Below are positions 5,951-54,226 of a DNA stretch of 54,226 nucleotides, piece after piece. The position numbers and the translations under genes were made by a program. The stretch is taken from the NCBI GenBank assembly GCA_002633005.1, contig NMRA01001107.1, forward strand, positions 1 to 54,226, in the 5' to 3' direction. The DNA is from Phoronis australis (Eukaryota; Animalia; Phoronida). Under the pieces are notes generated by a model, which made no database searches, was not told the DNA's origin, and worked only from the letters and a program-made list of their open reading frames with translations. Numbering within the stretch: position 1 is the first letter of the stretch; every line of letters begins with the position of its first letter.

Positions 5951-6058
5951 ACACGCTCATTTACAGGATACCGTATCCTGGTGGAGTAAATGAGCGTGTT
6001 GAGCCGTACTTCACGGTTGGTTTACCGGCGGTAAACCAACCGTGAAGTACGGCTCAAC
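5951..6058. repeat. Compound palindrome: branched hairpin (5951-5999) abutting a perfect 61-bp palindrome (5998-6058)
   Basis: ACACGCTCATTTAC/GTAAATGAGCGTGT stem enclosing AGGATAC-C-GTATCCT, then GTTGAGCCGTACTTCACGGTTGGTTTACCG-G-CGGTAAACCAACCGTGAAGTACGGCTCAAC (30-bp arms, 1-nt centre). Confidence 0.95.
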
Positions 6059-12504: not shown

Positions 12505-13830
12505 GAATTGACGTTAAAGACAACATGTTGACTACGTTTAAATCATATCTCTTAGAGAACTGCCAGGTTGTATCCCTTGGTGGACATCTGTCTGAGTCCC
12601 GAGGTATCACACACAGTGTTCCCCAGGGATCCATCCTGGGACCTCTGCTGTTGTTACTTTTTATAAATGATCTCTCTTTAGTCTGCGAAAACACGGTTGA
12701 CATGTATGCAGATGACACTACTTTGTCTGTTGTGGCAAACTCGCTGATCGCTGTAAAGGACAGACTCCAGTATGATCTGGATAAGGTTGCTACCTGGTGT
12801 ACTGATAATAAAATGGTAATTAATGCTGAAAAAACAAAGTGTACGAGTATTGCCACAGAGCAACGGCATAGTAGAAGTAATCTTGAGCTTAACCTTGCTA
12901 TTTCCAATGTACACCTCAAATATGTTGACAGTGAAAAGTTATTAGGTGTTACTGTAGACAAGACCCTCAGCTGGTCTAGCCATACAAATGGGACTGTGTC
13001 CAAAATTAGGCAGCGCCTTGGTCTTCTCCGGCGTATATCACCATTTCTTCCCACAGAACGGCGTCTGCAATATTTCAGCGCTTGTGTATTCCCTCTGTTC
13101 GTTTATTGTAGTAGTAGTCGGTCAGGATGCAATGCGAAATTAGTTTCCTCTTTATTGAAGGCTCAAAAGCAGGCGTCCAGACTAGGTGTGCCTTTTGACA
13201 TTCCGTCAACTCATATCTTTAATAGACTGAGGTGTCTCCCTATTGACAAAAATTTTATATATAGGCGTCTGTGTATGATGCATAGGTGCTTTCACGGTAA
13301 TGTACCGACTTATCTATCTCATAATCTCATACTTGTTCGAAATAGCCACCAGATCAGGACAAGATTTTCTGCCTCAAACAATTTGGTTTTGCGCAGACAC
13401 AGAACATCGCTTTATTCTAAGTCCGTCTTTATTCAAACAGTGGAATAATTTGCCTAATAGTCTTAAGGATGCTGATTGTTATGATAATTTCAGACACCAC
13501 CTCATCAGTTACCTGTGGTCGTCATAGATGTCCCTCCTTCTTGTCTTTCCAATATATTTACCAAATTTTTTATTTATTTATTTATTTATTTACCTTTAAT
13601 TCAATTTGTTTATCCAATTTGTAAATACTATTTTATTTAATGTATCTTATTGTATCTTAATTTAATCTGTTTATCTAACTTAATTTAATTAATTTAAATT
13701 TCTTACTGCAGAGGACCATGCTGGATATTAGCCTTTGGCTAAAGCATGTCTTACATTTATTGTATTTTTATCCTCTTTAAATAAAGTTTATTATTATTAT
13801 TGTTGTTATTATTGTTATTGTTGTTGTTAC
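12505..13830 (+). mobile_element. 5'-truncated CR1/L2-group LINE (RT C-terminal half, 3' UTR, simple-repeat tail)
   Basis: ORF 12525-13448 has VPQGSILGPLL and YADDTT RT motifs and EKLLGVTVDKTLSW. It continues by frameshift into QWNNLP. AATAAA at ~13780 followed by a (TAT/TGT)n tail. Confidence 0.92.
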
Positions 13831-18521: not shown

Positions 18522-18922
18522 GGCCCGGTCTCCAATCTTTTTACTCGAAATGGAACTTGAAATTAGGTTTGGCATTTTCTACTCAACTTTTGGGCGAACT
18601 CAAGATAAGTGTCTATTATTCTATGCTCGAGTACACAATAACTTACGTAGATAATTTATTGCCCTTAGTTCACAGTTTGTAAACCCAATATTAAAGCAAT
18701 AAGTTCGAGTTTGAACTCGAAATTTCGAATTTTTACTCGAGTTTGTAGCACGAATATAAGGGTCTTCAAGGGCAAACTTGAACTAGAAACTCCTATGCAT
18801 AAACTATAATGTATTCGAGCACAGTCTGATAACCACTTATCTTAAGTTCGCACAAAGGGAGCAGAGAAATTGCCAAAAATAGTTTCGAGTTCGTTTTGAG
18901 TACAAAGATTAGAGACCGGGTC
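18522..18922. mobile_element. PIF/Harbinger-type MITE with 3-bp CTG TSD
   Basis: CTG|GGCCCGGTCTCCAATCTTT ... AAAGATTAGAGACCGGGTC|CTG. Internal CTCGAA repeats. Confidence 0.8.
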
Positions 18923-18999
18923 CTGGATGGCGGGCCTTACACAAATCACAAAGCTCAAAAATGTCAATGAGAAACACGAGGCAAATGCAATGAAATTAC

Positions 19000-20230
19000 C
19001 TTTTAAGCAACCTTTTGCCTCTAGAATTAACTCCTTGTTTGAAGGGTAGAAGGAGAACGTCCACAGACCTTTCGCTGCTAGCAATACAACCTTGTCATCA
19101 GTCTTTGCAAGGCATTTGACGTACAGCGGAAGAAACCCAAGTTGAACAATGGTGTTACTGTTACTGTTGTTTATGGCCAGCTTGTTCAATCCTTCCAAGA
19201 GCTCAGAAACGGAAAATCCATCCCAACAGTTTTTAGGCGATGATACTGCGCCCTGTAGTAGTTCTTTCAGATATTTTATACTTTCTGTGGATGCGCTGAT
19301 TTTCTCTTTGTCATTTGCATCATGATCAATTGTATAAGACAAAATAAGGATAGCCACAGTTTTGAGCTTCACGTTCGTACTTTTGGTATAGTTTTGAACA
19401 ATTTTAACAGTCTTTTTACGTAACTCTTTGTTTAAAACTACCTGTCTGACAACATTATGCAGAATTGATAGGGCACTGGTGATGATGCAATGCATGTGTT
19501 TCGTTGTGGTAACTTTTCCTCCGTCAACCCTCTCAAATCGTAGTGCATCATCCCATTTATCGCTCTTTTCAATTTGTCGACGAAAGGCAGAACTGTCAAG
19601 CATTTCACCAACTTTAGCCACGACCTGAAAGTCCACTAGGCGATCACAAAATTCCTGTAAAGTATCTGAAGCATTCCACATTATGATCATCAATATAGAA
19701 AGACTGTCATACAGCTGTGCGTGTGATATTTCAAGTGTATCCCCAATTATGTAGCATTTCGTGTCGACCATTTCTTGCAAAAGTTTGCAGCATATGTCTT
19801 CTATGAAACCCATGTCAAGGAAAATCCAACATAGCTTTTTTCGTTTTTCAAACGGTTCAATGGTCGTGTATTTCACTAATTGTACCAAGAGTTCAAAATA
19901 ACCATCATTGTCATAGTTCATTTCTTTGAGCTCAGAAATGATCCGTGTCACCTGGTTATCATCAAATGTGACTGGGAACCTCGCCGATGGATTTAATATC
20001 ATGGCCATGAAGTTTATAACGGCTTCAAATTTCTCTTCGTCAGTGTCAGAATTTTCTTCAACGTCTTCAGATGGTTCCACATCAGAGCTAGTCTCTGTAT
20101 CATGTTTTACCCCACCAGCTGCAACAGTCTCCGACTTGATATGTACCACATCGCTCTTTCCGTCGGCTGGTTTGTCTCCTTCCATAAATTCAACACTCGT
20201 TGACTTGCAAACTAATGGAGCAATGCCCAT
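19000..20230 (-). CDS. ARM-TIR gene, coding exon 1 (acidic N-terminus + armadillo-like helical repeats); gene = join(20230-19000, 15802-15701, 6973-6848, 5348-5247, 2482-2294...)
   Basis: 1.2-kb open exon with acceptor tttacag| at 20291 and donor |gtaatt at 18999. Likely start ACCATGG at 20230. ARM-like motifs include IMWNASD, ALSILHN, ELLEGLNKLAINNSN and AAKGLWTFSF. Splices in frame to the TIR exons. Confidence 0.88.
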
Positions 20231-20460
20231 GGTAGTCCACACTTCTTTCCCACAGATGAGACCAGCACAAAAATAGTACACGACAATTCTTCTGTAAATA
20301 GAAATATCAGATTACTTTTGGGATGAAAAATTCACTTTACATTTTATCATTACTTTATTTTGTTGAATGTAAGAGGTCACCGACCGGCAATCGATAATAA
20401 CATAACTTTATAAACACTTACACAGCAATTACAGATTCAATGTTTCACTTCTGACCAGCA

Positions 20461-21430
20461 GTGCTCTTCGTATATACTTTGAAACGACCATTACTGTGGA
20501 ACCGCTACATAGACGACACTTTTGTCAAGACCCAGAAATACTACATTAGTGAATTTCTAGATGACATCAACTCTGTGGACCATCCCATCAAGTTTACCAT
20601 TGAGCACTCATCGGATGAAACATGGGTGCATATCAAAGAGGACGGCAACACGTATAGGTCACTATCTACCAGAAACCTACCCACACGCATCTGCACCTGA
20701 ATATCCGCTCGAACTATTATCTCCAACATAAAAGATCACTCGTGTGTACACTTATAGACAGAGCTGGACTATTAGTAACAAAAAAATGACAATCATCGGG
20801 AAAAAGACTAGAATTAAACATGTTACGTGACAGTGACTACTCCGGCCGACAGGACGTTCGATCCCAGACCCAATGTGTCTGTAAGAAGGCCGACCCTCTT
20901 GGAATCAACGTAGCCCTTCCGTACGTTCACAGACTCTCGGAAAAACTGTCTCACGTCTTCAGAGAACACCAGGTGGGCACCTACCACAAACCAGTCAACA
21001 CCCTACGGAGTGCCTTCGTCCACACCGAAAGACAACTCAAGACAACAACAAGGTATGAGGGGTGATATACAAGATTGAATGCCCTGAATGTCCTGCCAAA
21101 TATGTTAGTAAGACCGCTTGGAATCTAGACAACAGAGTAAAAGAACACTTTTAACATATCATCTGGCAACCCTACAGCATGCTGTAGAAGAACACCGTGT
21201 GGACACATCGCACATCATTTGCAGATCTGTAGTCAAAATACTATATTGGAATCGTAAAATCAGAGAAGTAATCGAGATCATGAGCAGTAAACCAAAATTG
21301 AACAGAGGCAGTATATATGAATTACCAGCTATCTGCCAGCGCCTCCTCGCAACCACCAAGGACACCACCATGTAACAAGAAAATTCTCGCCAGTACCCCG
21401 TCGAAGGGCCCAGGATGGGCTCGGCTAGGT
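20461..21430 (+). mobile_element. Decayed Penelope-like retroelement (RT C-terminus + GIY-YIG endonuclease)
   Basis: WNRYIDDTFV, IKFTIE, ALPYVHRLSEKL, HKPVNTLR and GVIYKIECPECPAKYV read across several frameshifts. The 3' GAAGGGCCC-AGGAT-GGGCTC hairpin near 21400 resembles a decayed hammerhead stem. Confidence 0.88.
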
Positions 21431-29822: not shown

Positions 29823-31960
29823 ATGCCACGCCCAAAAAAGTCTAAGGCTGAAATGATGAAGCGGCTGCGAGAGCAAGTAAAAAGTGACCCAAAAACATCG
29901 AGCTTATTTGAAAAAGGAAATGGAAAGGTACCAGCAACGAAAATAACAGGATAAAATAAAAACCATACATGAGATGAACGACAGAGAGCAGAGACAGCTA
30001 CGACGTAAGCGGAAGAAGGAGTAGAGGAGAAGAAGGAAGGCGCAACAACCTGCAATAAACACTTGCACACCCCATACAGAAACACCCCTGAGACCACTCC
30101 CAATCATCAGAGCAGACAATTAACAGCTGGACGTAGAAAGGTTAAACGTATCGACAGAATATCTTACAGAACAATAGAGAAACAGAAAGCACTGATGAAA
30201 AAGTATGAGAACAAAATAAAACGACTCCAGCGACAAATGAAGAAATCAGACTCAGCAACAGTTTTATCCACGAATTCCCCTGCATCAAAAGCTACTGCTA
30301 TTATTCGTTCAGGAAACGAAAATAAAATTAGGAAGGAGCTGACTTTCGCCAATGCAATAAACGAAGATTTCAAGAGAAAGCTAAAAGAAAAGAAAAAGCA
30401 AAAAGACAAGCATGTCTTGAATAGCATGGTGGTAGGGCCACTGCGGCCCTTCTATTGCGTGCCACGATGTGTTGAGAAGCTAAACACAGTAAAATGCAAA
30501 CCGCATTGTAACGTAGAGCTCAAAGCAATTAAACTCCATGGATGCGGTTTCATTGCTTCTCCCAATATAACTAACCTATTCACAAGCGTGTTGTGCTCCA
30601 CAAAAACCAAATGTGTATGTTTGGTGAATGCAATTCGTGTATGAAGATGAAGAAAATATACAAAGATGTAACTCTCAAATCATCATTGAATGAGGTAACT
30701 TAAGCTAATGGTGTACAGTCACAGTCACTAAACAGACCATGAAAGGAGCCAAAGAAGTTTTAAGTTAGAAAAACGAAAGAACATTCGAGAGTTATGTAAG
30801 ATTTTTGAGGATGACCTGAAAATTGTTATGCAACATGAGTATAGAATTTTCCACCAATTTCGTGAAACACGACAGCTCAAAGACAACATCAAGGATAGCG
30901 AATGTAATCTACAGATCGACTTCAGTGAAAACTACTCTTGCAAAGCTGTAACTGAAGTTCAGTCAATGCATTTTGGCTCTAGCCGAAATTAGGTAACCTT
31001 ACATACATGCCACAGTACCACCTTGGAAGGAGAAAAAGTTTTAACTCAGTGTTGTTGCACTGTCAGTCCTGATAGCAGACATTCATCCATTGCAGTATGG
31101 GCGCATCTACATCCAGTGCTGAACAACATTCGTCAGAGTGGAAAAGATGTTCTACACATCATATCAGACGGTCCAAGTAGCAAGGATAAAAACAGCACCA
31201 ATTTTCAACTTGCATCAACCTATCCATTCAGACAGTTTGGATTCACTTACGTCACTTGGAACTTCTTAGAAAGCTCCCATGGCAAGGGACCTGCTGACAG
31301 CATAGGTGCGACAGTCAAAAGTGCTGCAGACAGACTTATTGCCTCTGGCAATGACATTATGGATTCCCAAGCTTTGTTCAAGGCTCTGGTTGGTACGATC
31401 AAGGTCAAATTGTATGAAATCGAAGGCAGTGAAATTGATGCCGTTCAGAAAGTCATCACAGATTTTGACACTCAAACAGTGAAAGGCACCAGGGGCATCC
31501 ATCAAATTTTGATCCACGAGCAAAGCATCATTCATCATCGCACTTTGTCATGCTTTTGTGGTTCAAAGTGCAAGTGTCACAATCTGGCAAAAGATGTGTT
31601 TAGTCATGCTTCATCAACGAGCGAAACTTTCAACACACTGACCACAATGGAAAGACGATTAAATGCGGATCAACTTTCGCTGTTTCAACGAAGACTGGCT
31701 GAAGGTTATGACGTAACCTACACTGACCTCTCTGTGCTGAATGAGGATAAACGTCAGGAGTACCTGCTTTGGAGGACTAGGAGAGCAGTTAAACTACAAG
31801 ACAAAAGGAAGATGGGTGACGCAGAAAGTACGGAGGATGACAGAGGCAGTGCAGAGGGATGAAGTTTCTGGAGCGTACCATGGTGAATGGAATACATAGG
31901 TATTCTTGGCCCTTGAGAAAAGACATATGTGACATCAACAAGTCTGCTGTTGTTACTGAA
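29823..31960 (+). pseudogene. Sola2-like DDD/E transposase pseudogene
   Basis: Motifs QIDFSENY, EVQSMHFG, SDGPSSKDKN, WNFLESSHGKGPADSIG, RTLSCFC...CKCH and YSWP. In-frame stop at 30989-30991 (SSRN*VTLH) and frameshifts in the 5' part. Confidence 0.82.
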
Positions 31961-33567: not shown

Positions 33568-34334
33568 TGTTCCGTCCAGTTAACTGAAATTGAGCTCTAT
33601 AATGAGGTTATGCTTTGGACGAAAGAATTAGGCGTTTTAATTTTAAAATTCAACTTGGTCGAGATTGATATTTGAAAAATATAACACATGAAATAGACGT
33701 AATTATTAAAACCAAGAAAGCAGAATTGATGGTCATATAATTTTCATTTTCAATTGCGAGCCTAGTTTTTTATCGTAATCAAAATATATATTTAATAATA
33801 TCAAGTATTATTTCAGATCAATGACAAATCAACTGTTAGTCCCGGTAGTGCCTAAAAATTTTGAGAAGGTTAAATGGAGTAGATGGTTGCAAACAACATA
33901 CCCAAGTGGCCGTCATCCCCTGCCGTAGTCTCAATTTTTTGTAAACATTAATTATTTAGGTAGCTGCAATGATAATTAAATTAAAGTGCCTAAGTGGCCA
34001 TCGTCGCCGTCGAAATTTGAGGACGATGGAAGCCACTGTCCATTTCGTCAAACGTTGATTACCTTAAGTGTAAATCGATTGACTATGGTTTGAGCATCTG
34101 ATTTAAAAAAATTAAATTTCAATCACTACACAGGTATATCAGCTGATTTATTTTCAGTTGCATCTACTGATCTAATTATTAGACGATCAACATTATTAGG
34201 CTACAGATCAGACGGCATGTAAATTTGTTAGGCTGGTGGTGGATCAGTTCCTGATAAGTCCGTCTGAAAAAGTTGCATGCCAACTCACTCATAGTTGAAT
34301 GTTAAATTAGTGTTAACAGTTCGGGTTTTTTTCA

Positions 34335-35862
34335 GTTGGACTTGTATCGCAAGCAACAGCTCAGTCCAGAGCCCTGAATATGCAAATGAAATTCAAAGAT
34401 AAAGACCTTGTGTCTTAGAAGCCAAGTACCACAGATCATCATGCTGTAAAAAAGAGAAAGACAAAGATTGTGGAGAGTGACGAATCCCCAGTTTTCAGAG
34501 ATGTTTTTCTACAGTTTTGTTTGGAGTTCATTGAATCAAAGCTTCTAGCACATGGAGATGTCATTTGCCTTTCAAAAATAAAGCAAGACTTTGAAGCTGT
34601 TCTTCAGAAAGCTGGTGTGCATGAAGTTATTTGGACAGGCAATCTTAAGAAATATTGTTGAAGCTACTCACTGTTGTAGTTTGTGCCTGACTAAGAGATA
34701 CGAAAGTGAATTGAGGCTAGTGTTCAATAATTCACTTGCTGACTCTAATTAACACAGCCCATTGTAACATATTTTGAATCAAACGTTTGCCCAAATAGTG
34801 CCCGCCTCCAAACAAGGACTTAGTGTTTGACCCTTCATTGCCTGCGGGCTAATCACCAGTGTGCAGTGCTGTACCCTCTCTAATCGACCATAGTTGGCTC
34901 CTTGGCGGTGGAGCTTTGCAGTTAATATGTATGGCAATGACCGCATCTCCATTGACAGTACTAAACGATGAACGCTGCAAGTGCAAAAAGAACATGTGTG
35001 CTGGGAAACTGAGTTTGTGCTGCAATGCTGGGTCAAACTGTACAGAAATGTGCAGCTGTGACAACTGTAGTAACATCAGCAACACTGACTGCATAACATT
35101 GGATAGTTCTTTGACAGGCCAACCCTAAATAGACCTCCAACCCCGTTATTTCCTTTTTTGTATTAAAAAGTTAATTTTATTTGTTGATTAAGTCATAGAA
35201 AGTACATACTTTGATCATTGTCATGTATTTGTCTCATACTGCTTAATAAACGCTGTCAGAATAATCTATTTTAATACAGTCTTTGTGCACATTCACAGAG
35301 ATCATTCAACTATATTGTTTTTGTACTATAACATATTTCTGGTGTATTATGCAAACAAGCTGTATTTTACACCATTAGTCAATGTTTTAGTCATTGAGGC
35401 ACAAATTTTGCCCAGTCTCAAGTGTTTTGTGTTATTTTTGTTGCCTGACAATGCCAGAATAACTTCCTAGAAACATTCAGACTTAGTTTGTATTTTTGCC
35501 ACTAGGTGTCTCTTTACGTTTTTTAAATTTCACTGTTTACAATTAATTTACAATAGTAAAACATGTAATGTGAGTGTAATATTGTTCAATACAATGGCAC
35601 TGATGGGACCATATTACTTGTTTTACAAAAAAGTCACCAAAACTGTTGTTTTTACAAATATAAGTTTACTAAGCTCTTTGGTGATTATTAGGTAACTTCA
35701 AACTCAAATTTCTCAAAAATGTGCAACTTTATATGTGGGAACTTTTTAGATTTTGAAAACACTCTAATAAATGAATTAAAAAACACCAAAATAAAATTGC
35801 CCCCCTAAAGTACTCACAAAAACCATTTTCTAGAGGCCCTACAAAATCTGGCCCACCGACTA
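34335..35862 (+). mobile_element. Internally deleted Academ-like transposon remnant
   Basis: KDLVS/LEAKYHRSSC (Academ DLxAxEAxYH motif across a frameshift). C-terminal CKCKKNMC...CC...CTEMCSCDNCSN Cys cluster at 34975-35073. Right end ...GGCCCACCGACTA (TAG terminus). Left end uncertain, possibly TAGTCC at 33837. Confidence 0.7.
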
Positions 35863-39859: not shown

Positions 39860-42800
39860 GACGCGAAAATGGCACAATATTCTACAGGTTTCCAAATGAC
39901 TCAAGAATGGTTCAACAGCGGCTAAAAAAATAATTTTAAAATCAATTGCAAACAGCTGTATATCCCCTTGTATCATAGGGCAACTGAACAGTGAACATGG
40001 CCATTTGACGTCACGATTAAAATAACAATGACATGGGAATGGGAAACTGGTAGCGCGTGCAGTGGTGGGTGATGACTACAACACTGTGAAACTGGTAACG
40101 CATGTAGTAGTGGGAGCAGACTACAACAATGTCATTGTACGTCGATTGAAAAAAAAAACTACAATTCATAGCTCTGAACTTAGGTCTACCTTTTTTTTAG
40201 TAAAAGGTCCGCATTCTCAAAAATTCGAGCCCCCATTGTTTAGGCTGGGTGCGCGCATTAATTTCAGTGCTGCTTGTTCAACTCCAGAGTCAGTTTTCGT
40301 CGGCAGGCGAACCGTCAAACGATCCACATGTAAACACAGCACCAAGAGCAAATTTTTTAACGAATTTTACACTAACACTAAAAGGAAATTAATCTATTCA
40401 GCCTCACTGATCAGCGAGAGACATTCTAGTAATTAAAACAAGAAAGGCGTAGGCCGGTAGGCCGAGCGAGACGTCGGAAACAAAGCCTAACTACGATGGC
40501 GAAAGGGTTTAGCTTTCAATAATCAGTCGGTTAGTACAATCCAAGCATTCTGATTGCCACCTTTTAGCCTATCTCAGTACCGCGATGACAGTCTCAAAAT
40601 TTTGGCCAATACTTGTTTATTTTGTTTACTCTTGACATGCTGGAAAGTGCTTTAAAATCATGTTTTCTGGGGGTAGACATTAGGCCTACCTACATGTACC
40701 AATTAGCTGTCTCAGCTGCAGAGTACAAATCCTTAGCAGGCGACTGGTGATGGTAATGGATCATTTTATGCCAGAAATTCGTTTCAAGGTTGTTTTTTAT
40801 TGAAAGTGAGTTTGCACGGAAAACTTAATGACGTATCCCATGCTTCCAATAAATGTGACCAGTTTATATGAATACTTAATATTAACATTTTTGACCAAAT
40901 GTAGCATGACTAACTACTAACATATCATATTCACAAAAGCCTTAATTGGAAAACGAAATATAATTCATTAAATGGATTTTATCAGGATTTCTTCCAAATC
41001 TTTATTCATTCGATTCCTTCTGAGAACAGAACACATTAAAATGTTTAATCATCAAAACTATTTCATCAGACTGTAAAATATTCTTGTTTTAGACTTCTGA
41101 TATTAATACAATAAACATTTGCTAGAACCAAATAAAATGAGAGTCCATTCGGAAATAATTACAATGGTTGCTAGGTGGCTTAGAATACAAAAATCAGAAG
41201 TGTTGCCATCTGTATGTGCCAAGTTTCTTGAAATTCTGAGAAGAAACTCTGAAGATTCAGGACACAGCAGTAGCCAGATCTGCCTAAAAGTCATCGTCCT
41301 ATGTTTTCACATTCATATAAATACACTTGACATATTTCAAAAAAATCCTGCAAGGTGCTAAGGAGATACAGCTGGGTCACAAAAATAAATTGTCACTAGA
41401 GGGCACCACAGTAGACAGAGCCCTGGGAAAATCAACATCAGTCATGGTCTTCTCAGTTCTCTGGAAGCGTTTGGATGTAAAAACTCGCAAATAATAAAAT
41501 GACCATAAAGTGGCACATAACATGTCAAATCCACCCTTAAAATGGAGTAACATCATCATCTCCATAACATTAACCAATTTGCTAAATTTCACAAGAATCT
41601 GTTAAGGAACTTGAAGATGCAGAGGTATACATGACAAAAACTAAAATTGCTACTAGGGGGCAAAGCAATAGTTGGATCATAGAAAAACACTCGCTGAGTT
41701 TGTAAGGGGTTAAGGTGATACGGTTGCAGATGCAAATTGCCAATAGCGGGTGACACAGTAATAAGTCTACTCGAAATATCTATGTTGTCCATTATAGTCT
41801 TCTCGACAGGAACACATCTGCTAATTTCAGTAATGAATTTTCATAATATTCCTTCGAGCAGTTGGGCAAACAAAAAGGGTGCCAAGAAACAGACTTGAAA
41901 ACGATTAAGATGGCGACTAGGTGGCACAGAATACGCTGAATCTGTCCAAAATAGGGAGAGCATCACCATCTCAACAAAATACTATTTGCCAAATTTGAAA
42001 AAAATCCATCAAGAAACTCCAGACACAGAGGCAAATGTAAAAAAGAAACTAAAATTGATCAAAAAATTCATCAGCCATCAGCTTCATAGGAACACATCTG
42101 CCAAATCTCATTAAGGTCCTCAAGATGTTTAGGAGCACATCAGTGGACGCCACGTGCCCAGCAAAGGTGACAGTATCTTGCACCCACATATGTATAAGTG
42201 GGTACACAAAATGCCTGATAACATCCGCCCGATGTCCATAACAATTTCATTTTTCAATCCATGATTTGATTGAAACTTTACAAGCTCAAAGGTCAGAATG
42301 GTGTCTAAATTCAAGATTGTTTTGGTCAATTCAACCTCAAGCATTTGAAACAATATCTGACTTGGTCTGAAACACTGCATATTCTCGATTCTGATGACAA
42401 CCAACTGCTCATTTTACCAATGAAGTTGACCATAAAAATGAAATTTTGCAGGGCTACCAACCCATTAAGCACATAATCTGTAACCTTCATGCTAAAATTC
42501 CATGCAACTTGCAAGGGAAAACTTGTAGGATTACAAAAATTTTCAGAATGTTTAAATTCCAATCAAAATATGATGTGATACACCAAAAATCTACTTCAAA
42601 TTGTGTTCAACTAAAAATATCACATTAAAAACTCTGCTTACTACGTTGATATTTTATGTTCAAGATGGTTGATTTCTCCACACTGGACGACGACCCAGCC
42701 AACCTTGATAGAAAGAATATGTAAACCAGTAACAGTTAACAGCCCCAACACTGTAAGTCAAAAACCTCTGGAATTCCGCTGTATGTTTCTTCAAGAGCAA

Positions 42801-42947
42801 AGAGAAAAATAACAGCTTTAAGAATGACAAAGCTGTAAATTCACTTTAAGAAACATAGATGGATTGAGATAACAATTACACATGACTGCCTACCAGGTAT
42901 TCACAAATTTAAAACCAAATAAATTGATATCAAACTCTATTTACAAC

Positions 42948-43321
42948 ACTGCACAGTGTAATCTACTGCACAGTGTAATCTACTGCACAGTGTAATCTAC
43001 TGCACAGTGTAATCTACTGCACAGTGTAATCTACTGCACAGTGTAATCTACTGCACAGTGTAATCTACTGCACAGTGTAATCTACTGCACAGTGTAATCT
43101 ACTGCACAGTGTAATCTACTGCACAGTGTAATCTACTGCACAGTGTAATCTACTGCACAGTGTAATCTACTGCACAGTGTAATCTACTGCACAGTGTAAT
43201 CTACTGCACAGTGTAATCTACTGCACAGTGTAATCTACTGCACAGTGTAATCTACTGCACAGTGTAATCTACTGCACAGTGTAATCTACTGCACAGTGTA
43301 ATCTACTGCACAGTGTAATCT
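42948..43321. repeat. Perfect 17-bp tandem array (ACTGCACAGTGTAATCT) x22
   Basis: 374 bp = 22 x 17, no variant copy seen. Begins 22 nt after the stop codon of the KH gene on the minus strand. Confidence 0.98.
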
Positions 43322-43343
43322 CAGTCCATTGTCAAACATGTTA

Positions 43344-44357
43344 TTATGGATGAGAAGCTAGATGCACAGCCTTCCTCATCAGCCATTGCGCAAAATCAAT
43401 TTGTTGTTTAGTTCCTGTTATTGTGATGGTGCGCTCCTCTTTATCTGGCTCAGAGTTGTCTATCACAATAGACGCCTTTGACTGAATACGTATGTCTCGA
43501 ATGCGATCACCACCTCTACCAATGATGAAGCCAACAAACTGGTTGGATATGGTAACCTCACATTTTTGAATATTACCAAAACAGTCAGCATAATCATCCA
43601 ATCCAAACCCAAATCCCATTCCAAAGTCTTCATTAAGCAAGCTTGGTCTGTTCATTTGGCCAAAGGCTCCAAGTATACCCGGTTTGTCCAAGCTAGTATC
43701 ATTGAGAAGGCTTCCCGATTGACGAACAACTGTTGGCTCATTACCATTGCTGGATATTCGCTGACGTTTGGGCGTTGGTGGAATATAGCTCCGGCTCAGC
43801 CCAACACCATGCTGATTTTCATTGTAGATATGCAGAATTTTATCTACACAACTCATAACCATTTCAAGTGATCCATGTATGTTTACAACTCGATCTGAAG
43901 AACCAGGTAAACATTCGGAATGCACTTTGATACTAGCACCTGTAGCCTGTCGCAGACTTTCCACCCTGGAGCCACCTTTACCAATGATTGCTCCAATCAG
44001 GTTTGAAAACACCATCAAGTTCAGATCATGATCTGTATTACCCGTAGGTTCGGCACAACGGGTTAAAACTTCACGTAAGCAACTGCATACTGAGCCAATT
44101 TGACCTTCAATGGATAAAACACGCTCATCAGCTGGTGATGATGGAATCTGAATGTTGACAGTGTACTGCTTCCGAAGACGGCTGATTTCTGCACCTTCTT
44201 TGCCAATGATAGCACCTGCATCCCGAGACCGTATTAGAGCTCGAAGCTGAACGTTAGAATCATCACCTTTGAGAAGTCTTTTTGGACTAGCAGCATCTTT
44301 TACGGACTGGTCACCTGCGTCATTTCGTCCATTGTTAAAATTTGAATCGGATTCCAT
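43344..44357 (-). CDS. HNRNPK-like: Intronless hnRNP K-like protein, three KH domains, 337 aa (probable retrocopy or transposon-captured copy)
   Basis: KH1 LRALIRSRDAGAIIGKEG...ERVLSI, KH2 GAIIGKGG...IKVHSECLPGSSDRVV and KH3 VTISNQFVGFIIGRGGDRIRDIRIQSKASIVID...RTITITGTKQQIDFAQWLM parallel hnRNP K KH1-3. Uninterrupted ORF ending in tandem TAA TAA. Confidence 0.9.
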   Translation of the reverse strand: MESDSNFNNGRNDAGDQSVKDAASPKRLLKGDDSNVQLRALIRSRDAGAIIGKEGAEISRLRKQYTVNIQIPSSPADERVLSIEGQIGSVCSCLREVLTRCAEPTGNTDHDLNLMVFSNLIGAIIGKGGSRVESLRQATGASIKVHSECLPGSSDRVVNIHGSLEMVMSCVDKILHIYNENQHGVGLSRSYIPPTPKRQRISSNGNEPTVVRQSGSLLNDTSLDKPGILGAFGQMNRPSLLNEDFGMGFGFGLDDYADCFGNIQKCEVTISNQFVGFIIGRGGDRIRDIRIQSKASIVIDNSEPDKEERTITITGTKQQIDFAQWLMRKAVHLASHP

Positions 44358-44399
44358 TATCGGTCGTGATCTACGGTTTAAAAGGTGGTAACTTTCGAA

Positions 44400-44635
44400 T
44401 GAAATGCTATAGTTTGGAGAGCAGCGGGGGTTGGTTCTTGAAAGTCACGTAAAAGTACAAATAGAGGTACGTGAGAAAAATAACGACACCCGACGACTAC
44501 ACCGATCACCGTGCGCCGCGAAAAGGCCACGCTTGGTTTCCCCACTACACCACCGGAAGTATTGGAGTCTGTGCGCGCGCAGGGAGGTAGGTGACCTCTA
44601 ATCATGTCAGAGTAGGTGACCTCTACCCATGTGAC
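44400..44635 (-). promoter_or_regulatory. CpG-rich putative promoter of the KH gene
   Basis: Local CpG enrichment, ETS-type CCGGAAGT (44553-44560), TGCGCGCGCA palindrome (44572-44581) and a direct repeat GTAGGTGACCTCTA (44587-44600, 44612-44625). Confidence 0.5.
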
Positions 44636-46950
44636 TTTTGTTTACTTCTGCTAGATCAGCTGTTCGTTTCATGTTCACATTAGATAGTTTTAGAGTTTTA
44701 CAACAACTCGGGGTGAATTATTGGATATATTTTTGTGAAAATTGTAACACGAGACAAGAGTTTATTTTCTGCACTAATATTTGGCTACCTTTTCAAAGTA
44801 AGATACACACATAATTTAAAAATTGAGGGTTGTGCAAGGCCAACAACCGGTTACTGACGAACGCGGGTGAGAGCATCTGAAGCACAGTACATAATGAGCT
44901 TTACACGGTAGTGTCGCTGCTATTACCAATGATGTCAGAGCCAGAACTGTCATTTTGGTCATTTTTCAAATGAGCATTTCAGTGGCGGATTTACAGCCCC
45001 CCATTAAAATTCTCCCATATTCCATTAGGGAACTCCTATGTCCCAGAGATTAAAAAGCGAGACATAATTCTGGAAATCAGGCACATTCCTGTGTCCCTCG
45101 ATTAACTAAGAAAGGCGAAGAATGTCAGGTCATGCATCATGGAATGTTTGTCCAGTTTATCAATTTTTTTCACGTCCGAGTTGCATCCCACAGCACAGTA
45201 GTAATACTTTGTTGCCATTGAAAGGACAATGAAATAGAGTACGGATGCAACTGAGAAAACCGTTTAAAGAATCGTACAACAATGAATAACATGTGAAAGT
45301 TCTCGCTGAAACTCCTGTGGCAGGAAAACAAGGCAGGATGTTTACAACATTGTTGGTAGATACAGCAAGTTTCCACTGTCGCTGTGCAATCTGGGATGGC
45401 CTTATGTATTTCTGTCGGTCAGTCGACCTGAATTACCATTTCTTTGTCTTACCATACGCTCAACAGCATGCCCTGTCCATGTTCTTTGAAGATATAATTT
45501 AAACACTCTTGACATTGCATTCAGTTTGAAACATTTGTTGAGAAGTGTATATAACACATGTATACATACATATATGTGAGTACAAATACCTAGTGTCACC
45601 AGTAATGGAAGGCTCAGAATGGCACACACATTCACTCATCAACCCTAACATGTACCCACCTACACAAGTACATACATGTATGCGTGGGAGAGTTTGTGAA
45701 CTGCAGAATGTGGTTCTTGTGAGAAGGAGCTTACCAGAACTTTTGACAGAAAATCACTTAAGACATTATTAACATACCAACATTTTTTTATAGTGCCTGC
45801 AGGGGCTGCCCCTATATTATATATTAGCCTGTGAAAGCTTAACTCATTTATTGGATGAGTCACAAAAACGCCCCCTCCTCCTTTCTCCAGGCTTGGGACT
45901 GGCAAGATGCAACACATGATTTTATACACAGTATGGTGCAACTTGGCGGAGTTAGGCGTGGTGGGGTCTAACCTGGAAAAGGAAAACACATCATTGAAAT
46001 GGTTCCGACTAGACATGCTAAACATAACTGGTACAATTATGAAAGTAACTTTTGAAACCAATTTTATTCTTCAATGCGTCTTATATTCACTATATTATTC
46101 GTTATATAATATACACTATAATATACAATAAAGTGGACAGGAATCCACCTGTTTCCATTCAGGAATATCCGAACTCAGGTATTCCAACAATAAGACAATT
46201 ATCTTCTCAGTCAACACCATGTACATAGCAAGACTATCAAAGAGCTGCTATCACTGTACTTGTATGTGAATTTCAAAATGCTGATTGTGAGTGAATGACA
46301 CTCAGGATTTACAACTATCAACAAAATTCTAACCCACTATGTGCACTAGGTACCCTTTCCAAGAACAAAATCAGAATACTTACCCATTGTAGTAGACAAC
46401 TGAAACATAACTAAAATTACTCTAATACCAATACAATAGATAATACACAATAATTCTCAGAAAAAATAACACAACAACATTTCCTAAATGATGAGTTGCC
46501 GAAAATGATTTGAATACAATTAAGCTCAAAAATCAGTCTCACAATATTCCTTACAATAATAAGACTCCATTTATATCTAAAGTGCTTTAAACCACCATTT
46601 ACCTTGTTTTCACAAGTGACTACATTGTCAGTATTAATTAATGCTTTATATCAAAGCAATCGTGGATAAGCATCCCAAAAACGAAAACCAGAAATTAATT
46701 AAAAGAAAACAGACATCAATTGAAAGTTTCTAAGCTGCACAAAAATGAGTGTGAATTATATGAACATGTACTCAATGTTTTTTGAAATCAGTGACTCCAG
46801 AATAATACTTCCGAGCTTACAGGGGTTGAGCAAATATTAAAGTGGGAATTCAAAATGGTGCATGAACTCATTTACTGTGTCTTGATTTGCTGGCTCATTT
46901 GATAATTACTAACATTTGGTAATGTTTTTAGTGTTAACTTATAGAATTAC

Positions 46951-49900
46951 TTAATCTGAATGCATAGGATCGCAAGTAAAGCAAAACCATTCCTGGCTGT
47001 TTGGAGGTGCAACTATTACATTACAGCATTTAAAATGGTACCAGTGGAAACACTTGTCACACTGTATAGATGGCTCAGCGCTGTCATCAGTATCTGGATC
47101 AGCACACTCCAACTGACAAATAGGACAGAAAAAATGTTGGATTTTTGTTATTGGCTTTCGCCTTCCCTTGGACTTCAAATTTGTCTTCAGTTTATGCTGC
47201 GCTATATTTGCTAACCCAGAATGCTTAGAGTCAGCAAGCTTCTGAAGTTGCTTATGAGGAAGTTTTTTAATTTTTGTTATGCATGCGTCCTTCACTGCAA
47301 AGGTATTCTTAGCAATGGAATGTTCTTTAAGGTGTGTACGGAATTCCTTTAAATTGTTAAAAACTGCTTTTCTTCCATTTTCATGACAATACACGCAAAA
47401 CCTTTTCCTATGTTTCAATTGTATGTGCTTGTCAAGTGCTTTGTCATTGGTAAACTTGAAAGGCTTCTTAACACCTTCTAAAATGCATGTTGTGCACCCC
47501 TGTAACTCAGGAAGAACTGTAGTCGGAACTTTAGTTCTAGTACTAGTGATAGAATTACTTTGATCTTCACTTTTTCCAACTTCCACACGATCAACCTCTA
47601 CTTCAACTTGTACTTCAACTGGGCTTATCTCTGGCACAACAAAAGCATGGTTGTCATTAGCACAACTTGAACTCTTATGTTTTGATTGTTTGGAAGCCAG
47701 AACATGTTGTCCCAAACTTTTTATCCCCGATTGTACGACTTCATGAAAATTTTTTCTTTTGGTGGATCTCTTCATTTTTCGTCCACAAAAAGTTCCCTTT
47801 GACCTTTCAACAATTGGCACTAGTGGGCAATAGGGGTCATAACTTTCTTCAGTCATTTCAGTCAAAGGATTTATGTTAGTAATAGGTCCGAACTTCCTCC
47901 TAAAACCATGTTTGTGTGGCAAAACATTACCTGGTCTTCCAATGTGTGCATTATTACATATGTATGTATCATGCAAAACTTTGAGAATTGTTCCACTTTT
48001 AATCCTGCCATGTTCTTCCTCTGAAGGTTCATGAGAAAATGAGTTCAAGTGTTCAATCTTACCAAAAGTAGAACCAGGTGTAGCAATTTCTTCAATGTGA
48101 TTGGATAAGTAATCAGGAATATTTGGAACTGTGTTTAAGTATAGCTGCAGTAATTTGTTTTTGTCATTTTCTACATGTTTTTGCCGAAGAACTGCAAGCA
48201 AGTGCTTACAGAAATATGGCTGGCCCAATGAAATGAATGTTATACATGTACACGTGCATAAGTCAATGTTACATATGTGTTCTGAACCCACTAAATTCTG
48301 ACAACCTTCTGGGAGACATGCTTTGGTAACGTCATGATTCATTCGCAAAAACGCTCCAATTAGATCCTTGTTTGTTCGTTTGACTGCTGCTTCTGCTGTG
48401 TACCCATGTTCTTGTACATTACTTTGTGAAACAATCGCATCAATGTCAGAAAATATCTGAGAATTTTGCTCAGAAGACAGTTCCACATCATCAAGTATAG
48501 TAGCCAATTCCTCATCTGACATGTCACAAGTGTAAATTTTATCTGGGAGTTGTGACGATGTTGACCCAGAAGTGGGAGCTACTAAATACCAACCATGAGA
48601 TAAATTCGTTACATTTGAAATAGTGAGGCTTTGGTCGATAGATTTTTTGATAAATGTTTGCCTTGAAACCTGTAACTTTTCTTGATGAGAGTGCATTGTG
48701 TGGAACGATTCACGAATAAGAACACAGTTCATCAGTTTGTCTACTAAGTGGCACATTTTCCGGTTAACTCGGTTTTGGAAGTCATTTGCCTGGATTTCTT
48801 TGAACTTGTTTTCAGTAATATTATCTGTAAGCATTAAAGGGTTTCTTTTCTGTTCATCTGGAATATTATATAGCACAGCTGATGTGTAAGTACTTGTCCA
48901 TCTGCATTGAAACCACTGATTATCCAAATATTTAAGAAATTTCTGTTTCACATTTACTGGAATTAATGCTTCGGGAATAAAACTAGAAATAAATTCTTTA
49001 AACCTGCCAGACAACTGATCATGAACATTCCTACACCAAGATCTCATTATTGTTTTGAATCCAATTTCAAGTGGCCACATGAACATTACTAAAATGTTGT
49101 CTTCCTTTATGTATGTACGGTATGCTGTTAATGCGTGGAAGTTGCATAATGTTGAATGTGAACCGAATCCATGGACTGCATTACAGATTGCCATTGCCTT
49201 GTCATGCTCTATCCATGGTTTGAAAATGTGATCAAGAGCACATTGTCGAGTCCAAAAAAACCCATTACCATCGTCAAAAGTGTGTAATTGTTTAGGATGA
49301 GAGCATGTAGTACTTGAACATGGAACATTTGCAGCTATTATTTCTAAAGTGAGTAATATGGATTCTTCGTTTTCTACATTGCATATAGATATTGCCCCAA
49401 TACGCCCTTTTCTGCTTGAATCGCAATATGTTAATATAGCCGTTTTGTAGCGAGCAGCATTCAAATCATGCTTGACATCAAAGCCACAGACAACCGATCC
49501 ATATTTTCGAAGGCAAGTTAAACTATCATCGGTTGCCAAAACAATGTGGTAATTTCTCTCTAGCTGTTCATTACCCCTTTGAAAAAATAGAACAGATTCG
49601 TAGTTGCTTTCCAAAACCTTTTCTGTATCCCGCCAATCTGACCTAATTTCAATAACATCTTTGTTGGATATGAGTTGATTAATCTGATGACTGTCAGCAA
49701 CTTTCACTCTCTTAGAAATCTGACCCAAAGAAAAGTACTCCATTTCCTTGCCCCCAAAGTCTACTGGATTTGCTCTCATATATGTTGACTGTATTGTATG
49801 TGCTGATAATTTACTTTCTGCCCGCATTCTGTCCCACGTAGTTCTGGCTGTAAGTTTTGGTTTGGTGTAGACAGAAGTAGGATCACTACTGTGGAAATAG

Positions 49901-52900
49901 CTGTTAGCAGAACTTGCATAAATATCATACATTTCTAAATTGGATGTGTTCAGTACTAGTTTCATCTTCCAATTGCATTTGAGATGTTCATGATGTACAA
50001 CATTAGGGGTGGTATGGCAAGTATTGGTTACTCTGTCCACCTTATGTATTCTTTTGTACTCATAACATGATCTACATCTCAGTTTGTCTCCATTGTACCA
50101 CTGGCTAGAATATTTCCTATTGCAGTTGCCACACACTTTGTTACTGCTTAAATCAGTCTGACAGCTGGGACATTTATCATCCGTTATGTTCTGTCTGATG
50201 TCACAAAGAAGTTCACCACACCTGCTTCTACATTCGTTTGTGTTTGATGTGCATGTTAAGTTCCAATGGATAATGTTCTTGTTTACAGAGTTCCCTGTAT
50301 AAATAAATTTTTGGTCCAGTCTATTTGTTTTCCCCCAGTTAGGATGCTTGGTTACTGACACACATGGCGTCCCTTTGAGGTACTCTGAAGATGTGTTGTG
50401 TGGCTCTAAAATATCTAAGTCCTGATTCACTGAAAATGGAAGTTCTTCAACATAATTTAGTGTATCTGAGCCAACACGAACCTGACCTATTTTTTGAAAT
50501 TCTGCTGAAGCCGAAGCCAACCAATATTGGCAATGTCTGCTGTTAACATAGTCTTGAATCTTTTTTACACTGTTGCTATCATCCAATCCTTGGTTTGTAC
50601 AAGTAAAATACCGACTGCAAATTTTACCATTGTTTAGTGACAGTTTTAGATGTATCTGTGGTAAGTGTGACTGTGGATCATAAGAGAGTGATGGAGGTGA
50701 AGTAATAAATGTTGATACCAAACTGGCATCAATAACATCATCTCTTATTTCCATCTGTTGCTGACTTCCATTAATCCAGTCAATGCAGTCGTTACTGTTA
50801 ATGAAATTTTGTATTGTCCTGTATGTATCACCATTAGAGCCAGCAAATCTCTTGGAAAGGTGTGCTCCATTGTTTAAAACTAAAAAGAGTCGCATAGAAT
50901 TACCATCTCTGTAAATCTTTGTCTTATTGGAAATGAAAGAAGAAATATTAGAAAAGTCTACATTTTCAATTCTATTTTCCAATTTTGCACTGTCTTGGTC
51001 TTGCTTGTTATGAATCCATTGAACACACTCATTACTGTTGATAAAGTTCTGAATATCCTGAAACACATCAGCTTTTGACCTTTTAAACTTCTTTTGAATT
51101 TTGGAACCATTCCTTAAAAATAAACAGAGCCGAAAAAAAACACCATCTGCATAAATTTTTGGCCTTCCATTAACAAATGGTAATACACTAGAAAAATCTA
51201 TGGTGTCTTTAGTAAGAGCAGCGTTGCTGTTGGTATTATTGTGATTATTATCTGAATTGGTTGTGAGATGGCTGTTGGATGAGCATGGTTTATCAATGTT
51301 GACATTGTCAGACTTAACTTGAGGAAAAACAGACTCGTCGTTTCCTACACTATGGTTACTTGGTGGCACTTGATGCTTTTTTGTTAACTTAAGTTTGTTT
51401 TTTGCAACGCAACTCTTTTTCTGTTCAGGAGTCTTGTTTGTCAAATTAGTATTGGCAAGATGTTCATTTTGACTATTTGGCTTTGAATGTCCAGCCTCCT
51501 TATCAAGTTCAGTGTGATGATCAGTGAAATTGTGTATCACTTTAGACATGTCAGAGCTGCCATCTTCTGATGTTTGGTCACTTACCGTCTCAAGTATAGG
51601 ACTACTATGGGACGACAGAGAACAATTTTGTCCCAAAGTTTGACTGCCATGATTGTCCTCTACTTCATCATCATTTATCCTGATTTTTCTTATGTTAACT
51701 TGTTTTGAAACCAACCAGTCTATCAAAACCAATCTCAAAAAAGATGAATGACTGCTTATGTTTCTGAGGTAGCACAGTGAGGAGACCATTTGACCATAAG
51801 CTAACTTAGTGAAGATGTCAAAATTACAGACAGCAAGTGCCATTCCAACAGTTGCAGCCACACCGCACACTGTTCCACATGTTTGGATAGGATATGTATG
51901 AGAACAAGTCTGCGAACAAATGTGTGATTTTTTCCTTCGCATGTGTGTATTATTAGGACTGTGCACATAATGAATTAATTCAACTGACCCACCTAAACTT
52001 TGGACTAAAACATTTAACTTCTCTGAGAGAACATTTGGTATTGCCCATCCATTTGTGTCTGCATAAATTAAGGTTTGATTGCTAAACGAATATACAAGTA
52101 ACGCCCAGTGATTACCAGCCTCCCCATTCTCACCACTTAGAAAGGTCGATTTGTTATTGTTGATTCCTACATGTACAACAAAAACAAGCTTACTTTGGGA
52201 AAGGTCGCTACCACACTGGTGATGTACTTTGGTCTTCAATACATCCAAATCGTCATAGAAATTAAAAAGACTACAGAATGTGTTAGCCTGATCCAAATTC
52301 AAAAGAGCTGCAAATTTTGAAATGACCATGTTATTTAACCAATATTTACAAAGCAGGTCCACAGCATCTGCAACAATTAAGTCAGGGTGGTTCATGACAT
52401 GGTCTGTGTTTTTGCCCTGCAATGATTGGCGTTGAAATGTCTCAATGTTCTTTCTGTTTATTGGAGCCCTCATATTATTTGACTGCTCGATAATAGTGTA
52501 TGCATTCTTAAACCACAGCTTTTCTGCATTTACCTTGCGTGAAATGACCTTACAGGTGTGTAAGTTATCAAAGTATTGAAGATCTTGTTTATGGAAGGTA
52601 CCAAATCTTAGGTTAACTGCATTCATTGTAGGATATTTGTTCAAAATGTCAAAACTTCTCTTAATGTCAGTTTGTGGTGGCATAAATTTGCATGTTCGGG
52701 CTTCTGTAAACTGATCTGTATTGCATGCTGTGATTTGGCGTGTGGGTAACACTGCTGGATAAGCTATTTGAGATAAACCTTCCCTACTATTAATACTACT
52801 TAGGAAAGGGGTAAGTGAACTGCCATCATCATTGTCATCATCACTAATACAAATGCATTCACCTTCATACGATTTGTTAGTATACTTAGATGCATTACTA

Positions 52901-53054
52901 CCACTGCAATTATCAAAGTTACCACCATCACCGTCACCAGCGTCACCAGTGTCATCACCCCTTCCACCACCACCAGTCATGTACACTCTAGATTCTGCTA
53001 CAAAACACGGACTTGATTCTTGGCTGTGAACACCCTGAGGTATCTCAACACTCC
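46951..53054 (-). CDS. Giant Mutator/MULE-like transposase, terminal 6.1-kb exon: Ulp1-like protease, 3x ~70-aa repeat, GATA-like finger, DDE core, SWIM, C2H2 x2, PHD
   Basis: Open from acceptor tttcag| (53054) to TAA (46951). Motifs: NHWALL/YADTNG/PIQTCGTVCG (Ulp1 H-D-Q-C), GFDVKHD...EHDKA...LCNFH...TDNITE (MULE D-D-CxxH-E), CTCITF...CKHLLAV (SWIM) and CPIC...IQCDKCFHWYHFKC...WFCFTC (PHD). Confidence 0.88.
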
Positions 53055-53272
53055 CTGAAATGCAATTCAGACTAGGTTAACATGTGATGCAGTCACTGAG
53101 CAGGTGAGGATGACAGCACAAATCATGCACAAATACGCGAACCGCCACACACACACGTGTATGTAAATGAAAGATCAATCACTTGAAAAGTCAAAAAAGA
53201 AAACCGGATTGAAAGATTTGTCTTGCGTAATAGGGATAAGTTGTACATATGCATCGGTGGTATTCAACTCAC

Positions 53273-53351
53273 CAACAACTCGACTATATGTATCAACAGG
53301 CCATGACATTGCAGCTAGCCACTCGGTCTGGTCTTCGCACACATCATCTTT
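53273..53351 (-). CDS. Giant MULE-like gene, small internal exon
   Basis: ttgtag|AAAGATGAT...GTTGTTG|gtgagt; 79 nt, phase 0-1. This is exactly the phase needed to join 53628 to 53054 (KDDVCEDQTEWLAAMSWPVDTYSRVV-G). Confidence 0.72.
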
Positions 53352-53627
53352 CTACAAAAAAGTGTTATACCTTGACTGCATGTCAATTAACAACTCACGG
53401 ATATCCATTGACCAAGAAATATTTTCGTAAAAATTAAAGCTAAAGTTTTGAATTTTTGACCCACTTGATATAGTCATAATTCTAATAATCTATAGTTTAG
53501 TAGATGTGTTGCTAAATATATAGATTTTTTAATAAGGTCCTACATAACCTTAAAACCCAAGCAGTTAAATTCCAGTCAGAACATAGTGTAATGTAGCAAC
53601 AAAGCAATGTATTGAAGTAAGGTTTAC

Positions 53628-53822
53628 GTAATGAGTTAGCTTCATGTGAGCAACAATTGCTGTAAGATCATTTCCGTGGAGTTCCCTGCAGATATGGCAT
53701 GATGGTCGGTCAATATATGGCTTCTTCTTCGCTGTCACTTGTTTGGAGAAAGTCGGCTTCACACTACGTCCTTGTCCTGCTAGTTGAGCTGGTTCCATGG
53801 CTTCTTGACATGCTGCTTCACT
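53628..53822 (-). CDS. Giant MULE-like gene, exon with C2H2-type finger
   Basis: tttcag|AGTGAAGCA...CATTAC|gtaaac; 195 nt, phase 0-0. Encodes SCHICRELHGNDLTAIVAHMKLTH. Confidence 0.75.
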
Positions 53823-54010
53823 CTGAAAAATACACCATATGAAGCAAAAGGGTAAACAATGAGCATTGGTACATAATAATGAATTCTGTATCATTTTAGT
53901 GTTAACAGTGTAACAGAAGCTTAAAATATTTGCAACAAAATGTATGACTGAACATGTTTTACTCTCAGTAAAACAAGCAACCACCTAATTTCTGAATGAC
54001 TGACACTCAC

Positions 54011-54173
54011 CCCAATCCATCGTCCATCGCGCATAATGATAATAACATCGTCGGGTGATGCAAGCTGCCCATCAAAATCTCCCTTTGAGACCCTTCTCCT
54101 CACACCATTCTTTCGCACCTTTCCACCCTCTTTCACTGGTCGTATGTCCGGTCTTCTCGTCTCGTTATGCATG
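54011..54173 (-). CDS. Giant MULE-like gene, most upstream in-window exon (basic, MHNETRRP...DGRWIG)
   Basis: tttag|C ATG CAT ... ATT GGG|gtgagt; the phase 0 donor fits the next exon. The acceptor suggests further exon(s) beyond the window. Confidence 0.62.
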
Positions 54174-54226
54174 CTAAAGAACACAGATTCAGTGTTTCAT
54201 GTCCCAGGGACTGCGTTATGTTTTTT

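Follow-up and report, generated by a model that had tools for sequence, protein, structure and literature searches.

A multi-copy Mutator transposon with a predicted N-terminal Ulp1-fold protease adjoins a likely host retro-duplicate of hnRNP K in Phoronis australis

Introduction

Two intact genes near one end of contig NMRA01001107.1 of the phoronid Phoronis australis (assembly GCA_002633005.1; positions 1-54,226, the whole stretch analyzed and hereinafter the window) raise the question of whether they form a single mobile element or are two unrelated neighbors. A first-pass annotation of this DNA had described one of them as a Mutator-like element (MULE) transposase of at least 2179 amino acids (aa) with a Ulp1-like protease and a PHD finger, and the other as an intronless, divergent hnRNP K-like gene (hereinafter the KH gene) with a perfect tandem array at its 3′ side. 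It had gone on to propose that the same element might carry the KH gene as cargo and that the two products might form a kit against host silencing. The descriptions held up under sequence, structural, and read-mapping analysis; the proposed union of the two genes did not. We find that a Mutator copy with a protease-bearing transposase adjoins a separately transcribed, likely host hnRNP K retro-duplicate, and that the two are likely not one element, a reading to which we assign a probability of about 0.8.

Results

The large gene codes for a predicted Mutator transposase

The main open reading frame (ORF) of the large gene (46951-53076(-)) runs for 2041 aa from stop to stop. A four-exon GT-AG model (54173-54011, 53822-53628, 53351-53273, and 53054-46951) extends it to one open frame of 2179 aa, matching the length given earlier as a minimum; its splices are predicted, and no RNA joint supporting them is listed in the two RNA runs mapped. 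Multi-copy sequence runs on from predicted exon 1 (54011-54173(-)) to the end of the window, predicted exon 2 (53628-53822(-)) contains a C2H2-like motif and is shared with an internally deleted copy, and predicted exon 3 (53273-53351(-)) keeps the frame.

Pfam searches with this protein recovered a PHD finger (E 1.6e-4), a SWIM finger (E 0.0013), and a weak ZSWIM RNaseH-like match, all below the cut-offs; the C-terminal finger (46972-47127(-)) is also matched by the PHD domain of TAF3 at E 2e-6, and the SWIM motif (48181-48276(-)), which follows the catalytic core, is conserved in homologs. The core region (48787-49509(-)) displays the residues D1200, D1292, C1311xxH1314, and E1422 (here and below in P0002 numbering), which are kept in most long relatives; a CxxH between the second D and the E is a marker of the MULE superfamily. 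Using VIA-align for all fold comparisons of predicted models, we found that a core model from 41 sequences (predicted local distance difference test score [pLDDT] 88.6) best matches ISCth4 (PDB 6xg8) of IS256, a prokaryotic Mutator-like family (Z 13.0, root-mean-square deviation [rmsd] 8.4, 250 aligned), with Hermes next at 11.2. Similarly, an Atlas search restricted to named clusters placed MULE clusters on top (0.95), and among the 41 aligned members Pfam matches MULE in four and GATA (PF00320) in six. The corresponding GATA-type C4 zinc finger (50032-50154(-)) is recognizable here by cysteines that align with those of the relatives, its own Pfam GATA match being absent. By their residues and models, these regions identify the protein as a transposase of the Mutator (MULE) type in which the D-D-CxxH-E core is intact and SWIM and PHD fingers are present, in the predicted order protease, GATA-type finger, DDE core, SWIM, and PHD. 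Between the protease and the GATA-type finger, visual inspection of the linker at 50497-51204(-) suggests a unit of ~75 aa repeated three times, one that is present once or twice in relatives; self-BLAST of this linker failed to pick up the repeat.

The N-terminal domain is a predicted Ulp1-fold protease

The region ahead of the core (51697-52401(-)) gave no match in Pfam (0 families) or in PDB sequence searches. It contains the protease motif residues W246, H323, D340, Q398, and C404, the last four of which are invariant in all four aligned sequences. Clusters bearing C48 peptidases make up 26 of its 30 Atlas matches, with PF02902 present in 16-42% of the members of the top three rows. A model built from four sequences (pLDDT 70.3) most closely matches Ulp1 (Z 15.9, rmsd 3.0, 201 aligned), SENP1 (15.8), SENP3 (14.9), and SENP5 (14.7), followed by a NEDD8 protease (13.1, within 3 Z units of Ulp1) and then by CE deubiquitinases of bacteria (Z 10-11); no solved protease is more than 20% identical to the domain. 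We predict this domain to be a C48-like, Ulp1-fold protease of the CE clan with its H-D-Q-C residues intact. A profile of the domain matches 16 of 152 family proteins (four being its own training set, and most of the other 136 being fragments); it lies N-terminal to the core in all 16 and retains the catalytic Cys in 12, which argues for selection and not for any given substrate. One relative (P0070) has two tandem copies of the protease domain ahead of the core.

What the protease would cut is not readable from its predicted fold, where Ulp1, SENP1, SENP3, and SENP5 tie and the NEDD8 protease is close behind. In the mechanism that we consider, the element would move by cut-and-paste, and its GATA-type, SWIM, C2H2, and PHD fingers would anchor the protease on chromatin or on the DNA of the element. 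There it would most likely strip SUMO from nearby repair or chromatin proteins; at roughly even odds against NEDD8, ubiquitin, or self-processing, such SUMO removal could ease expression or transposition. SUMO is reported to matter for Piwi-guided silencing (PMC13195609) and, in mouse cells, for complexes of SETDB1, KAP1, and hnRNP K (PMC4303303). An alternative to which we give somewhat less than an even chance is that the protease has a part in transposition or repair, or that its target is NEDD8, ubiquitin, or its own polyprotein, with no connection to silencing escape. The NEDD8 protease and bacterial deubiquitinase matches, at such low identities, are in keeping with this, as are the DNA-repair function that Bao et al. 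proposed for transposon Ulp1/OTU domains (PMC2836005) and the description of the function of the Ulp1 domain of plant transposable elements as unknown (PMC13317346). Pulling the other way, SUMO proteases take all five top places in the fold comparison, and the Cys retained in 12 of 16 proteins speaks of selection, though not of substrate.

The transposase gene is multi-copy and mobile

Reads were mapped on 43325-54226 at 85% likeness, which copies below 85% escape, from four of eight listed runs: two DNA runs (X1 and X2, of one sample, possibly the assembly's own) and two RNA runs of another study from unstated tissues. Copy number was judged by summed contig depth, a rough guide only, and by per-bin ratios to the bins of the KH gene. 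Over its 17 bins, the main exon (46951-53054(-)) has a median depth of 2.4x (X1) and 1.8x (X2) that of the KH bins, exceeding 1.5x in 16 (X1) and 12 (X2) of them, and the last bin of the window reaches 237 (X1) and 40 (X2). The copies behind this excess include a long second one (a 1743-bp contig at depth 113 with 26 substitutions, 98.5% identical), frameshifted ones with one-base deletions (depth 188-225), and an internally deleted one that skips 3863 bp and joins 49746 to 53610 (depth 188).

In other animals, a word-indexed protein search recovered three full-length relatives at 33-38% identity, and a full protein scan retrieved 156 at E <=0.001, 150 of which are listed. In the nemertean Tubulanus (T. 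polymorphus), relatives form a cluster whose 11 proteins come from 10 named loci (99.4-100% identity among the six compared), and the limpet Patella (P. caerulea) has six proteins from five loci (91-100% identity). The raised depth, the diverged, frameshifted, and deleted copies, and these near-identical multi-locus relatives together establish that the transposase gene belongs to a multi-copy mobile element with broken and deleted derivatives. As an aside on the relatives, the longest isoforms of Tubulanus P0053 and P0056 begin with a GDSL/SGNH-like domain (Pfam Lipase_GDSL_2, E 2.5e-6, below the cut-off).

The copies in the reads also bear on an alternative in which the large gene is a domesticated, immobile host gene with a few decayed paralogs; being multi-copy, it is no lone domesticated gene, the case that the first-pass annotation had set against its own reading. 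The three predicted introns might suggest domestication, as might the synonymous excess (11 of 17 listed substitutions in the span of the 1743-bp contig, against 27% expected; p 0.0015) and the lack of a terminal inverted repeat (TIR) in the window. Introns, however, also occur in Ginger1 transposons (PMC2836005), the catalytic residues of both enzymes are all intact here, deleted and frameshifted copies are present, and near-identical copies occupy several loci in Tubulanus and Patella, so that we hold this alternative to be quite improbable for the phoronid gene. The nearest thing to a precedent for it comes from crab relatives (P0067 and P0216-P0219, from Scylla, Portunus, and one other source), which are single-locus and 87-95% identical across genera. 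Their core has other residues in place of its second D and its CxxH Cys, and their protease has lost both the Gln and the Cys to replacement; this swimming-crab branch is likely a domesticated, catalytically altered gene derived from the same transposon family. Separately, Oratosquilla P0051 also has no second catalytic D.

The KH gene is a long-branched member of the hnRNP K clade

The KH gene (43344-44357(-)) is an intronless ORF of 337 aa with three KH domains (Pfam KH_1, E 1e-42) in the KH1-KH2-linker-KH3 layout of hnRNP K and with all three GxxG loops intact (GKEG, GKGG, and GRGG). Its best matches are molluscan hnRNP K proteins at 31-39% identity, and two trees place it with hnRNP K, apart from PCBP (support 99/98, and 94 in the second tree). 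Its branch, at 1.9-2.2 against medians of 0.19 and 0.53, is the longest or second-longest, which makes its position within the hnRNP K clade tentative. Unlike hnRNP K, it has no RGG-rich linker: its only RGG lies in the KH3 loop, compared with counts of 2-7 for four out of five hnRNP K rows and 0 for the rotifer row; it has also lost the YDP-YGG motif retained in hnRNP K rows from molluscs to rotifers. Judging from these motifs, the protein would likely still bind single-stranded nucleic acid despite the loss of the RGG-rich linker. Elsewhere in the same clade, the 722-aa protein P0222 has five KH3-like repeats after KH2.

In the DNA runs the gene stands at depth 42-58 (X1) and 10.4-10.9 (X2), covered by long contigs with 0 and 4 differences. 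Among the contigs listed from these two runs of one sample, none represents a second copy at 85% likeness or more. In the RNA runs its mean depth is 5.5 and 6.5 on one strand and 0 on the other; for a standard stranded library, the covered strand would be the sense one. On this same strand, the transposase exon has RNA depths of only 0.06 and 0.50. Upstream of the KH gene, both RNA runs have reads in the bin 44417-44780 and none in the bin 44781-45144, and the CpG observed/expected ratio is 1.15 in the 5′ region as against 0.36 in the transposase. From the bin without RNA we conclude that the transcript starts in the CpG-rich upstream region, with no read-through, and 44358-44700(-) is likely its promoter and 5′ untranslated region (UTR).

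The array noted earlier (42948-43321) is made up of a 17-mer repeated perfectly 22 times, beginning 22 nt past the KH stop. It likely lies within the KH 3′ UTR, and nothing ties it to the transposon; its RNA folds no better than shuffled versions (z -1.58), and no AATAAA or ATTAAA poly(A) signal occurs in 41500-42947 on the strand of the gene.

These features suggest that the KH gene is likely a host retro-duplicate of hnRNP K. Were it instead the lineage's sole, fast-evolving hnRNP K ortholog with no extra retro-copy, the well-supported grouping with hnRNP K, the expression in both RNA samples mapped, and the CpG-rich promoter would all fit. A usual hnRNP K gene is abundantly expressed, for which the RNA depth here is low, and the exceptional branch length and the lost YDP-YGG motif are likewise hard to reconcile with a sole ortholog, which we thus regard as unlikely.

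The two genes likely do not form one element

The transposase stop and the KH ATG are 2593 bp apart, both genes being on the reverse strand, in agreement with the earlier description of co-oriented genes ~2.6 kb apart. The spacer between the KH gene and the sequence common to transposon copies (45192-46320) is covered by baseline-depth contigs with 0 substitutions, at 45192-45893 (depth 53 in X1 and 9.2 in X2) and 45892-46320 (depth 59 in X1); short repeats also map to it. A contig at depth 137 with differences just past the transposase stop still matches 46668-46697, and 58 and 53 contigs have unaligned letters before 46578, the sharp left edge of a high-copy repeat with varied flanks (46578-46730). 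Bracketed by the baseline spacer contigs, the depth-137 contig, and this edge, the sequence common to the copies fades within 46320-46668, and the 3′ end of the element likely lies there, leaving ~2 kb between it and the KH ATG. The 5′ (right) end lies beyond 54226.

The repeat at 46578-46730 is either the 3′ terminal region of the element or a separate small element, and it has no inverted partner within the window. Its edge at 46578 resembles what we take to be TTAA-flanked, Kolobok-type ends; the transposase being of MULE type, we do not adopt it as a proven end. Further observations in this region include RNA on both strands of the high-copy repeats with sharp left edges, here and from 45147 onward, and a weak 2.2-copy 21-mer at 46679-46726. 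One contig links 46532 with 53511 on opposite strands and might represent a rearranged copy or a terminal repeat. TIRs are absent in some MULE families; in this window, no TIR pair or second terminal copy was recovered by inverted-repeat, self-BLAST, or pattern searches (seven matches against 9.4 by chance), consistent with the earlier remark that the termini are not visible in it; self-comparison of the window found no second copy of 46300-46960 to the left of the KH gene; and two scans for related loci in metagenome contigs gave 602 and 247 pattern matches, 0 confirmed.

The family-wide evidence is also negative: a KH profile matches none of the 152 transposase-family proteins, and MULE, SWIM, or C48 families are absent from the precomputed domains of the 54 longer KH matches. 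The claims that the KH gene is cargo and part of an anti-silencing kit consequently find no support, given its baseline depth, its own transcript, the zero-RNA bin between the genes, the lack of KH domains in the family, and the fading of the shared sequence short of it. The mere adjacency of the two genes fits the tendency of MULEs to insert near genes (PMC6446971).

A version of the cargo proposal that calls for more scrutiny takes the KH gene as an old, single-copy, Pack-MULE-type passenger inside a terminal repeat further to the left, which would join the protease against host silencing. The common orientation and short distance of the two genes, the intronless and long-branched state of the KH gene, and a linker loss that would suit a decoy are compatible with this. 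Precedents are also available in the single-copy Pack-TIRs of animals (PMC8277862), the binding of KAP1 by hnRNP K in mouse embryonic stem cells (PMC4303303), and Vandal elements, in which VANC genes with Ulp1 bring about demethylation of their own family (PMC13317346). Yet the KAP1 evidence is mammalian, and no other transposase copy among the contigs listed is accompanied by the KH gene at 85% likeness or more. Nor do these contigs contain a donor at that likeness such as a young capture would leave, though an old capture would escape this search. The baseline-depth spacer, a KH transcript that is separate from and far above that of the transposase in two RNA samples, the missing second copy of 46300-46960, and the absence of composite proteins in either direction make such a passenger highly improbable. 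More improbable still is a giant composite Mutator in which an old captured hnRNP K retro-copy, as a linker-less KH protein, and a SUMO protease jointly disarm silencing.

Several points nevertheless weigh against our view that a mobile Mutator copy merely adjoins a host retro-duplicate. TIR transposons of animals commonly carry single-copy cargo (PMC8277862), so that baseline depth by itself is compatible with cargo. No end of the element and no target-site duplication (8-11 bp in MULEs) could be located in the window, the boundary being only bracketed, which leaves a small chance for a unique composite copy. One exon bin of the transposase itself (51333-51696) is also at baseline depth, and the depths come from two runs of the same sample, which may be the assembly's own, with summed depth giving rough values. 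The retro-duplicate status of the KH gene was inferred without any parent hnRNP K of this species in view, and SUMO, the most likely substrate of the protease, is suggested by a predicted fold.

Comparison with known systems

Mutators with Ulp1 have been reported from hydra, lancelet, Arabidopsis, maize, rice, and melon, and Ulp1 and PHD domains have been aligned for Ginger1 and Mutator transposases (PMC2836005); rice ULP-MULE fusions are likewise described (PMC12903978). The closest of these are the hydra and lancelet MuDR/Mutator elements (Bao, Kapitonov & Jurka 2010, PMC2836005), which, as here, combine a Mutator transposase with Ulp1 and PHD. The present family differs in having the protease ahead of the core in 16 of 16 bearing proteins, ~1500 aa from the PHD finger, whereas in Ginger1 the Ulp1 and PHD domains are C-terminal; our comparison with the Mutators of that paper is by description and not by Repbase sequences. 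Rehavkus (Dupeyron et al. 2019, PMC6446971) is similar in its single ORF with a PHD finger and its animal hosts. It is characterized by a TIR with a minisatellite, near the 3′ end, and by a 9-bp duplication; here neither TIR nor duplication is seen in the window, and the 17-bp array is separated from the transposase stop by 3.6 kb and by the KH gene. No named Rehavkus sequence occurs among the matches that were looked up. That paper lists no SWIM finger for Rehavkus in its table and mentions no protease or peptidase in its text, whereas both are predicted here.

The plant non-TIR MULEs Kaonashi (KIU) and Vandal (PMC13317346) have likewise captured an Ulp1 domain, and their VANC provides a precedent for anti-silencing. 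In these elements, however, Ulp1 is found in a separate VANC-type gene and acts on DNA methylation, unlike the fusion to an animal transposase seen here, where no VANC-type accessory gene was identified. ISCth4, the best core fold match, is prokaryotic, only 401 aa long, 13% identical, and without a protease. We found no literature on a protease-first MULE, such as this GATA-finger lineage, in a search that did not extend to Repbase Reports, most subscription journals, or the supplements of PMC6446971, which could hold one; the accessible parts of PMC13359780 and PMC6431247 contain nothing on a protease-first layout. Within the same reach, again outside Repbase Reports and most subscription journals, none was found on hnRNP K as transposon cargo.

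Other features of the window

The remaining transposon ORFs had been described as wrecked, and the three that we translated (30560-31100, 34330-35130, and 20480-21380) are indeed broken by stops or frameshifts. An intact 489-aa ORF at 18842-20311(-), with weak ARM-repeat similarity (E 0.11) and apparently the first exon of a host gene, means that the transposase and the KH gene are not the sole intact ORFs of the window. The broken remnants, all on the forward strand (30009-31862, 34330-35130, 20480-21380, and 12507-13448), comprise two DNA-transposon-like pieces, one presumably Penelope-like piece, and one reverse transcriptase fragment of a long interspersed nuclear element. The window also contains an assembly gap of ~815 bases (a run of N at 10344-11159) and a perfect 30-bp inverted repeat with a 1-nt spacer (5998-6058).

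Discussion

While Mutators with Ulp1 and PHD domains were known already, what is different here is the protease in front, the GATA-type finger, and the likely domesticated crab branch. A two-part anti-silencing kit would, if true, be the first for animals as far as the literature was searched; the evidence points away from it, and the linker-less hnRNP K paralog is best seen as a small separate curiosity. The element itself adds to the Mutators a marine-invertebrate lineage with a predicted protease-first layout and young copies in several phyla. These intact young copies make it testable what transposon-borne Ulp1 domains cut, and whether silencing is thereby relieved.

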